This document shows, piece by piece, positions 17,385 through 17,987 of a DNA stretch of 64,000 nucleotides. Source of the DNA: Candidatus Heimdallarchaeota archaeon (GTDB taxonomy: Archaea > Asgardarchaeota > Heimdallarchaeia > Heimdallarchaeales > Heimdallarchaeaceae); the NCBI GenBank assembly GCA_019057815.1, contig JAHLWR010000002.1, forward strand, positions 64,001 through 128,000, given 5' to 3'. Position 1 is the stretch's first letter. Every line of letters starts with the position of its first letter. The position numbers and the translations under genes are program-made. The notes under the pieces are model-generated. The model saw only the letters and a program-made list of their open reading frames with translations. It ran no database searches and had not been told where the DNA came from.

Positions 17385-17409
17385 GACTCTGTTAATATTC
17401 AACAGAGTC
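17385..17409. terminator. Hairpin between the convergent FAD oxidoreductase and the microprotein pair
   Basis: Perfect 9-bp stem GACTCTGTT-N7-AACAGAGTC, 2 nt past the microprotein 2 stop. Confidence 0.6.
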
Positions 17410-17411
17410 GA

Positions 17412-17531
17412 TTAATTACCAATCAACTGAAATCGAACAGTTTTGGAGAGCATTTCTATTTGATTCAATTTTCTTGAACTTTGGTAAGTTTTTTTGTTTT
17501 TATTTGATCTTTGAGCTGTGTGTCTGTACAT
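17412..17531 (-). CDS. Microprotein 2 (39 aa) MYRHTAQRSNKNKKTYQSSRKLNQIEMLSKTVRFQLIGN
   Basis: AGGTG-CAAAAAA-ATG start; C-terminal half homologous to the adjacent microprotein 1. Confidence 0.75.
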   Translation of the reverse strand: MYRHTAQRSNKNKKTYQSSRKLNQIEMLSKTVRFQLIGN

Positions 17532-17541
17532 TTTTTTGCAC

Positions 17542-17664
17542 CTATTTCATTGCGCCTACTAATTGTAGTCTGACTAAATTTGTTAGCATTTCAATACTAT
17601 TATATTGTTTTCCATATTCTTGTTCATGTCCGTTTTCCAGTTTTTGAGATGTTTTTTTAACCAT
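17542..17664 (-). CDS. Microprotein 1 (40 aa) MVKKTSQKLENGHEQEYGKQYNSIEMLTNLVRLQLVGAMK
   Basis: AGGTG-CAAAAA-ATG start; TTATTAAATA box upstream; shares NxIEMLxxxVRxQLxG with microprotein 2. Confidence 0.75.
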   Translation of the reverse strand: MVKKTSQKLENGHEQEYGKQYNSIEMLTNLVRLQLVGAMK

Positions 17665-17987
17665 TTTTTGCACCTATACATACCATAGAGTCTTATTTAA
17701 TAAGCAATTTTAAAATTCACTTGTTTTACAGCCTAACTCTAAAGTTTACAGAACTTCACTTGAGGAATAAATATACTATAAAGAAGTAAAAGCATTAAAC
17801 CAGATGGTTTATATTGGAAAAAGTGAAGAATTATCCACTAAAACATATAGATATAAGAATAAAGAAGAGATATTAACTGGGTGAATTTGCTATTATATCA
17901 AGAGCTTTTTCTATTTTAATACCCAATTATTTCACCTTTGTCTATCATGAATTGGATTGAATGACAAAAAATTATTCTTTTGTTATG

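Follow-up and report, generated by a model that had tools for sequence, protein, structure and literature searches.

The two short open reading frames on the minus strand of the window (the whole stretch of 64,000 nucleotides from a Candidatus Heimdallarchaeota archaeon that was analysed here) encode microproteins that belong to no described family, and footprinting gives good support to their membership in a regulon with two long bactofilins carrying a SHOCT-like hairpin. The common operator suggests that the peptides and the SHOCT-bactofilins form a small stress or cell-shape control circuit. This operator, which places the peptides in the bactofilin regulon, had been missed in an earlier reading of the sequence alone (the sequence-only reading).

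The microprotein locus and family

The sequence-only reading had described a minus-strand unit at 17385-17705 with a promoter box, two AGGTG sites, two ORFs and a 9-bp hairpin. All of these elements were found where it had placed them (Table 1), as was AGGTG before the genes at 43720, 44974 and 22219, but its upstream limit did not hold, as the operator lies further upstream. The role of the BRE/TATA-like box as a presumed promoter is read off the archaeal consensus. Overlap of the second Shine-Dalgarno site with the ORF1 stop codon suggests translational coupling of the two genes, and the hairpin, located between ORF2 and a convergent FAD-linked oxidase gene, is a probable terminator; the sister species and locus L327 preserve this stem around a different loop. 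Upstream, the locus is flanked by a metallo-beta-lactamase-fold gene. A connection of the peptides with either flanking enzyme, as had been considered earlier, found no support: the sister species has no hydrolase gene at its orthologous locus and a metagenome copy has another gene in that place, and the oxidase gene is convergent, with different neighbours at every other locus. The window also contains, at 11868-15314 and 21770-22219, a CinA-like gene and an HxlR-like regulator (both recognized by eye), a superfamily 2 helicase and a sulfotransferase (Pfam), for which no connection to the peptides was seen.

Table 1 Positions of the peptide genes and their control elements in the window
Feature	Position	Strand	Basis or observation
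ORF1, 40-aa microprotein	17664-17542	minus	Sequence, reading frame
ORF2, 39-aa microprotein	17531-17412	minus	Reading frame
TATA-like box	17703-17694	minus	Sequence
BRE and TATA-like box	17694..17715	minus	At about -40, conserved in 23 peptide promoters
ORF1 Shine-Dalgarno site, AGGTG	17671..17675	minus	Before nearly all family members
ORF2 Shine-Dalgarno site, AGGTG	17539..17543	minus	Overlaps the ORF1 TAG; same layout in other arrays
Hairpin	17385..17409		Perfect 9 bp; 11 bp with wobble, -14.3 kcal/mol
Main palindromic operator, TTWAACY-N4-RGTTWAA	17795..17812		Highest-ranking intergenic site genome-wide (score 18.8)
Phased operator copy (weak), 63 nt nearer the gene	17732..17749		Score -4.2; enrichment of +63 in peptide promoters, z 3.3
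Phased operator copy (weak), 84 nt nearer the gene, abutting the BRE	17711..17728		Score -5.2; +84 enriched across peptide promoters, z 4.1

The homology of ORF1 and ORF2 was borne out by a local alignment score of 61; 20,000 shuffles gave no score as high. In the sister species, the orthologous locus holds a three-copy array, and ORF2 differs from its orthologue there by three synonymous changes, one replacement and an in-frame 6-nt indel. Genome AB_125 has an orthologue as well (HeimAB125_04460). The 5' part of ORF1 matches the first sister copy and the 3' part the second; judged from this, ORF1 is likely a recombinant of the first two copies in that array. An 85-aa database protein (P0083 / L327:717-974) corresponds to ORF1 plus ORF2 with the TAG read as Q; it was the sole candidate for a fused form of the peptides and was rejected as a gene-calling artefact.

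A profile search of Asgard genomes, of the kind the sequence-only reading had proposed, found homologues with intact frames, Shine-Dalgarno sites and constant length in 27 of the 31 Heimdallarchaeaceae genomes and none in the 369 other Asgard genomes, where two weak phylum-level matches (L168 and L170) were spurious, lying within a long ORF or being interrupted. Two genomes added by means of the operator bring the total to 29; their peptides are the most divergent, with membership based on length, N-terminus, an E-L-T-Q core and the common promoter. The two genomes without a match are 78% and 82% complete. Family members are mostly 36-42 aa long and occur in 1 to 12 copies per genome, often in tandem: six in the source genome (two at the window locus, two on contig C27 and one each on C43 and C44; C27 also has a broken remnant, and there may be a seventh copy), eight in the sister species, twelve in another genus, and one each in genus g3, where the copy sits between xth and a gene for an MFS transporter. 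On sequence comparison, the arrays expand and contract and the paralogues diverge fast; the peptide tree, built on 40 columns, is poorly resolved.

Some additional loci are of a more irregular kind. The remnant on C27 (G000:C27:13225-13302) is a broken g3-like fourth copy, split from the array by inserted sequence; in the sister species this copy is whole (L011:1356-1478). Another ORF, of 36 aa (G000:C27:101032-101142, L329; G001:C230, L333), may be a divergent member (profile E 0.076); it is preceded by a Shine-Dalgarno site of its own, is divergent from a 312-aa ArsR-like HTH gene and is followed by an 83-aa helical gene, an arrangement kept in the sister species. At L188:1650-1751 (G005:C10), a strong operator precedes by 149 nt an ORF with a family-like N-terminus and an unrelated C-half; this ORF is divergent from a thermosome gene and is probably a frameshifted copy.

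The protein database contains 69 related clusters, all unnamed or annotated as 'hypothetical protein', homologues in it being assigned to Heimdallarchaeaceae, and the peptides gave no significant match to Pfam, NCBIfam or PDB sequences and no usable match in the ESM Atlas. The conservation of the 16-aa motif noticed at first was confirmed, but not its length, as the conserved part consists of a heptad-like stripe of about 20 residues together with an N-terminal M-x-x-K. Hydrophobic or small residues occupy alignment columns 21, 25, 28, 31/32, 35, 39 and 40, and the last residues are variable (A, N, Y and others). For ORF1 AlphaFold predicted one helix, with pLDDT 83 and 78 over residues 21-40 and low confidence at the N-terminus. 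The peptides have a net charge of 0 to +9 and a mean hydrophobicity of -0.09, with no transmembrane segment or signal peptide. Pooled dN/dS for 16 g3 orthologues, the pairs of which are not independent, was 0.41; the final 18 codons gave 0.29 and the N-half 0.61. Profile, substitution pattern, fold prediction and database searches thus agree with the earlier view of an undescribed family, selected at the protein level, in which the N-half varies and the amphipathic C-terminal helix is conserved; this heptad helix is, by codon comparison, under purifying selection.

Judged by this conservation, the two ORFs are conserved coding genes. That they are chance ORFs within a duplicated non-coding element is scarcely credible: the RNA fold of the region does reach a z of -2.3, mostly due to the terminal hairpin, but intact frames, in-frame indels, Shine-Dalgarno sites, dN/dS below 1 and the 69 related protein clusters all speak against it.

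A phased operator and the genes it marks

The main operator starts 148 nt before the ORF1 start, and corresponding sites are found at -147 to -150, or -170, across orthologous and paralogous loci, ahead of the first gene in most arrays. Such main sites lie 68-130 nt upstream of the TATA box, and site-to-TATA distances of about 47, 68, 88, 109 or 130 nt correspond to steps of two helical turns. In peptide promoters, weaker copies are enriched (z 2.0 to 4.1) on the gene side of the main site, at +21, +42, +63 and +84, with no enrichment at the matching positions on its far side. Exact-pattern counts per genome showed no excess over a reversed-pattern control, and the claim of an operator therefore rests on position and conservation.

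A matrix trained on peptide promoters only was used to search whole genomes. Its top intergenic sites in the source genome included those of the two known arrays, two paralogous 299-aa genes and one site without an annotated gene, which precedes the sixth peptide; in both circular Ca. Heimdallarchaeum genomes it revealed 41-aa peptides 147 nt behind the operator. The operator predicted three further family members in this way, and ten peptide loci found by homology and kept out of training all (10/10) have a site scoring at least 18. Only 4 of the 3016 source-genome ORFs have a site scoring at least 14.5, three of them being both bactofilins and the ArsR gene described below, and genome-wide the operator marks almost only peptide genes and the two SHOCT-bactofilin genes. 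In the source genome, where xth and the MFS gene are adjacent, there is neither a peptide nor a site between them; as far as gene order tells, the operator travels with the peptide and not with xth.

At least five peptide copies lack the operator and stand under other promoter elements. Two of these (upstream of L012:1620 and L054:825, in G002:C22 and C420) also lack the TATA box and have repeated TGACC-N7-GGTCA-like palindromes instead, by which they are, from the sequence, recruited to another regulator. On C43, an operator-less copy (G000:C43:203751-205744; L018, L059) is the first gene of a unit that also encodes a helical protein of 77 aa and a coiled-coil protein of 486 aa, the latter with a weak C-terminal ArsR HTH match; the unit is divergent from rpl40e. 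The operator was also seen before other genes. In one g3 genome, a tandem pair of 43 and 45 aa (L286:1501-1776; G009:C88) with W, H and C in a common motif follows the same operator at a distance of 149 nt, together with the TATA box, and constitutes a second microprotein family, clear in this genome and weak in a second one, with weaker relatives at L287 (G021:C16). In both circular genomes (L180, L185) a DUF438-hemerythrin-PAS gene has an operator-like site about 60 nt upstream; its source-genome orthologue is without one. In another family (L187), an operator-like site precedes a 45-aa ORF, which is a singleton and was not accepted.

The two 299-aa genes encode long bactofilins (PF04519 above cut-off in both) with an N-terminal SHOCT-like hairpin. 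One of them is head-to-head with a single-copy ArsR-type gene (G000:C16:93156-93614), with the operator in between, and this pair is kept in three families of the class. Where the bactofilin gene has been lost, ArsR has no operator next to it, and neither has a SHOCT-less bactofilin paralogue; by this pattern the operator travels with the bactofilin too. All 38 regulator orthologues match HTH_5 (ArsR), and the predicted fold (pLDDT 92.6) is a winged helix followed by a long helix and a C-terminal hairpin. In profile comparison the C-terminus of the regulator aligns with the bactofilin N-terminus over 39 columns (E 5.8e-4), according to which the two hairpins are homologous. An 873-aa protein without a Pfam match (G000:C8:26820-29441; L328) also has an N-terminal SHOCT-like hairpin (E 0.0097 against the bactofilin N-terminal profile); it has no operator and might be a further partner of the regulator.

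The nearest solved relative of the regulator, both by sequence (E 1.2e-7) and by fold, is Pyrococcus Phr (2P4W), which raises the question whether the peptides are small stress proteins of a Phr-like heat-shock regulon, and one peptide-like locus in G005 is indeed divergent from a thermosome gene. Nevertheless, about 25 Hsp20 promoters of the family have no site (best score 10.1, most under 7), nor do both thermosome genes of the source genome, and the match to Phr covers the winged helix only (TM 0.49, rmsd over 13). As the Hsp20 and thermosome promoters lack the operator, this is not a Phr heat-shock regulon; the idea is largely refuted by footprinting and we regard it as highly improbable.

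A proposed circuit and other roles for the peptides

In the circuit we propose, an ArsR-SHOCT winged-helix protein would bind the palindrome and line up in 21-bp steps towards the BRE/TATA box. That this protein is the operator binder is quite likely, the assignment being made by gene order only, and it would probably act by activation rather than repression, since the operator is distal and Bacillus BacR provides a precedent. The regulator would control the two bactofilins, which in turn probably sequester it hairpin-to-hairpin, as Bacillus bactofilins do BacR. It would likewise control the peptides, whose basic C-terminal heptad helix may dock on a helical hairpin and tune the switch as feedback. 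By analogy, the inducing signal could be envelope stress or a change of shape, which is a guess.

Feedback of the peptides, as outputs of the regulon, by docking on a SHOCT hairpin is a tentative proposal with somewhat less than an even chance of being right. It was chosen because the regulon has hardly any other members and the conserved face suits helix packing, because the charge of the peptides complements the acidic C-terminal region of ArsR (-1 to -7), and because two operator-less copies adjoin other genes with ArsR-type HTH matches. Counting against this reading, ArsR and bactofilin are present in much of the class without a detected peptide, and the peptide is therefore not a core part of the switch; the copies without an operator, at least five in number, also speak against it. 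A half-SHOCT mimicry seen by eye was unsupported in profile comparison: the peptides matched both SHOCT profiles with under 1% probability and gave no PF09851 match, such that mimicry is not detectable in sequence, and in place of a two-helix hairpin with a G-x-I turn a single helix is predicted. ArsR orthologues of another order have an extra C-terminal helix of about 22 aa (alignment A3, columns 163-185) that is missing in Heimdallarchaeaceae; the peptides might replace it in trans, for which profile comparison gave no support. The whole circuit reading, with translated peptides as the small-protein arm of a three-part ArsR/bactofilin/peptide circuit and docking included, is held equally tentatively.

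Copy numbers of 1 to 12 and fast paralogue divergence also fit a dosage-dependent effector with another target. The peptides may belong to the same regulon but act downstream and outside the circuit, with the basic amphipathic helix directed to an anionic membrane, nucleic acid, the ribosome or an unrelated helical protein under the stress that induces the bactofilins. Their charge and amphipathic character are consistent with this role, as are strong Shine-Dalgarno sites and repeated tandem amplification, which fit a need for dose, the recruitment of copies to other promoters and the lack of a SHOCT profile match. On the other hand, the invariant-like small and polar helix residues (E/D-Q-L-T and A) would suggest a shaped protein partner over lipid or DNA, mean hydrophobicity is low and there is no transmembrane segment. 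We consider such an outside target possible, if doubtful, and nearly as likely as docking; filament capping, secretion and heat shock are less likely.

In Bacillus, the 40-aa MciZ caps FtsZ. By analogy, the peptides could cap or remodel bactofilin filaments, with which they are co-regulated, and the N-terminal M-x-x-K of g3 members followed by alternating residues could perhaps add a strand to the end of the beta-helix. The model, however, is all helix with a low-confidence N-terminus, and selection is strongest on the C-terminal helix, which makes capping improbable. Even less probable is a secreted signal, antimicrobial peptide or RiPP precursor. The peptides are short, cationic and multi-copy, and in the source genome the genes of an FtsX/MacB permease and ATPase lie head-to-head with the C27 array, but this exporter is missing from the same locus in the sister species (L011). 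Furthermore, about 40 loci have no conserved neighbouring modifying enzyme, protease or peptidase, or transporter, the neighbours differing from locus to locus, and there is no signal peptide. The earlier suggestion of precursors recognized through a C-terminal motif found no support, with the same lack of a conserved enzyme neighbour and with variable last residues.

Returning to the docking circuit, an extended form of it can be imagined, in which a cytoskeletal SHOCT-bactofilin filament holds its own ArsR-SHOCT activator, the length of the 21-bp-phased array sets a threshold, and expanding and contracting arrays of at least two unrelated helical microprotein families retune the switch as trans-acting docking helices. 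We regard this form as rather unlikely.

Comparison with known systems and significance

The closest known system is the Bacillus BacR-BacEF partner switch. BacR, an HTH protein of B. subtilis, has a positive effect on expression of the bactofilin operon; BacE and BacF bind this protein, which then no longer binds DNA, and under vancomycin it moves from the membrane to the nucleoid (PMC13649987). In both systems an HTH regulator (BacR is YhbD, DUF4004) is genetically tied to long, double-length bactofilins and has a small dedicated regulon, the regulator gene here being linked to bactofilin genes with the operator in between. The positive effect on expression and the sequestration by bactofilins were shown for BacR (PMC13649987) and are only proposed here. 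Our regulator is of the ArsR/HTH_5 type with a SHOCT hairpin, DUF4004 not being among the families listed for the 38 orthologues, and the genes are divergent, whereas those of Bacillus form a single operon. The present sequences show a specific phased operator, in contrast to BacR, for which no specific site was found (PMC13649987); the accessible text of that paper reports no microprotein. The circuit would thus work like BacR-BacEF but does not belong with it, given ArsR in place of DUF4004, divergent genes and a specific operator.

SHOCT-like domains on a regulator and a beta-helical protein have been described in bacterial envelope-stress neighbourhoods (Ravi et al., 10.1101/2020.09.24.301986). 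The likeness to these SHOCT-like/Toastrack/DUF2089-HTH neighbourhoods, for which membrane-linked stress signalling was proposed, lies in a bihelical SHOCT-like domain that is shared by an HTH regulator and a beta-helical protein, in the latter at the N-terminus. However, the beta-helix here is a Pfam Bactofilin (PF04519) without a Toastrack match, the regulon has no PspC, LiaI-LiaF or PspA gene, and ArsR and the peptides are absent from that work (10.1101/2020.09.24.301986). Phr of Pyrococcus furiosus (PDB 2P4W; PMC10746257) resembles our regulator in its ArsR-type winged helix, long C-terminal helix and palindromic operator. Phr represses chaperone genes such as hsp20 (PMC10746257), whereas here hsp20 and thermosome promoters are without a site and the main operator is placed 68-130 nt before the TATA box; the operator pattern of Phr/HSR1 was not found, and AAA+ genes are absent from the top genome-wide operator matches.

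The peptides did not resemble other known small proteins either. They have no C-terminal G-E or G-Q as in Pup/UBact-like tags, and no Pfam match to alpha/beta SASP, ribbon-helix-helix (aCcr1) or WH2 proteins; one of 48 members matched aCcr1 at E 0.06, and none of eight family members did so when retested. MciZ, Sda, MgrB and Methanosarcina sP36 are regulon-encoded microproteins that modulate components of their own regulon. They are comparable to the peptides in size (36-47 aa) and in being expressed from a regulon, with no relation in sequence.

To our knowledge, very few operators, regulons or small proteins of Asgard archaea have so far been defined, and a literature search on this peptide/operator/bactofilin system found nothing. 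For Heimdallarchaeia, a class near the origin of eukaryotes, the present results name a regulator and target genes, define an operator precisely and bring to light a hidden microprotein family; the new parts are the microprotein arm and the phased operator. The operator is also a tool for finding unannotated small genes, having yielded three family members and the second family. Both circular Ca. Heimdallarchaeum genomes carry the circuit, and all its parts are small and soluble, so that in vitro testing is possible without culture. In its extended form the proposed circuit would, if true, represent a peptide-tuned feedback from cytoskeleton to transcription, not described in archaea.
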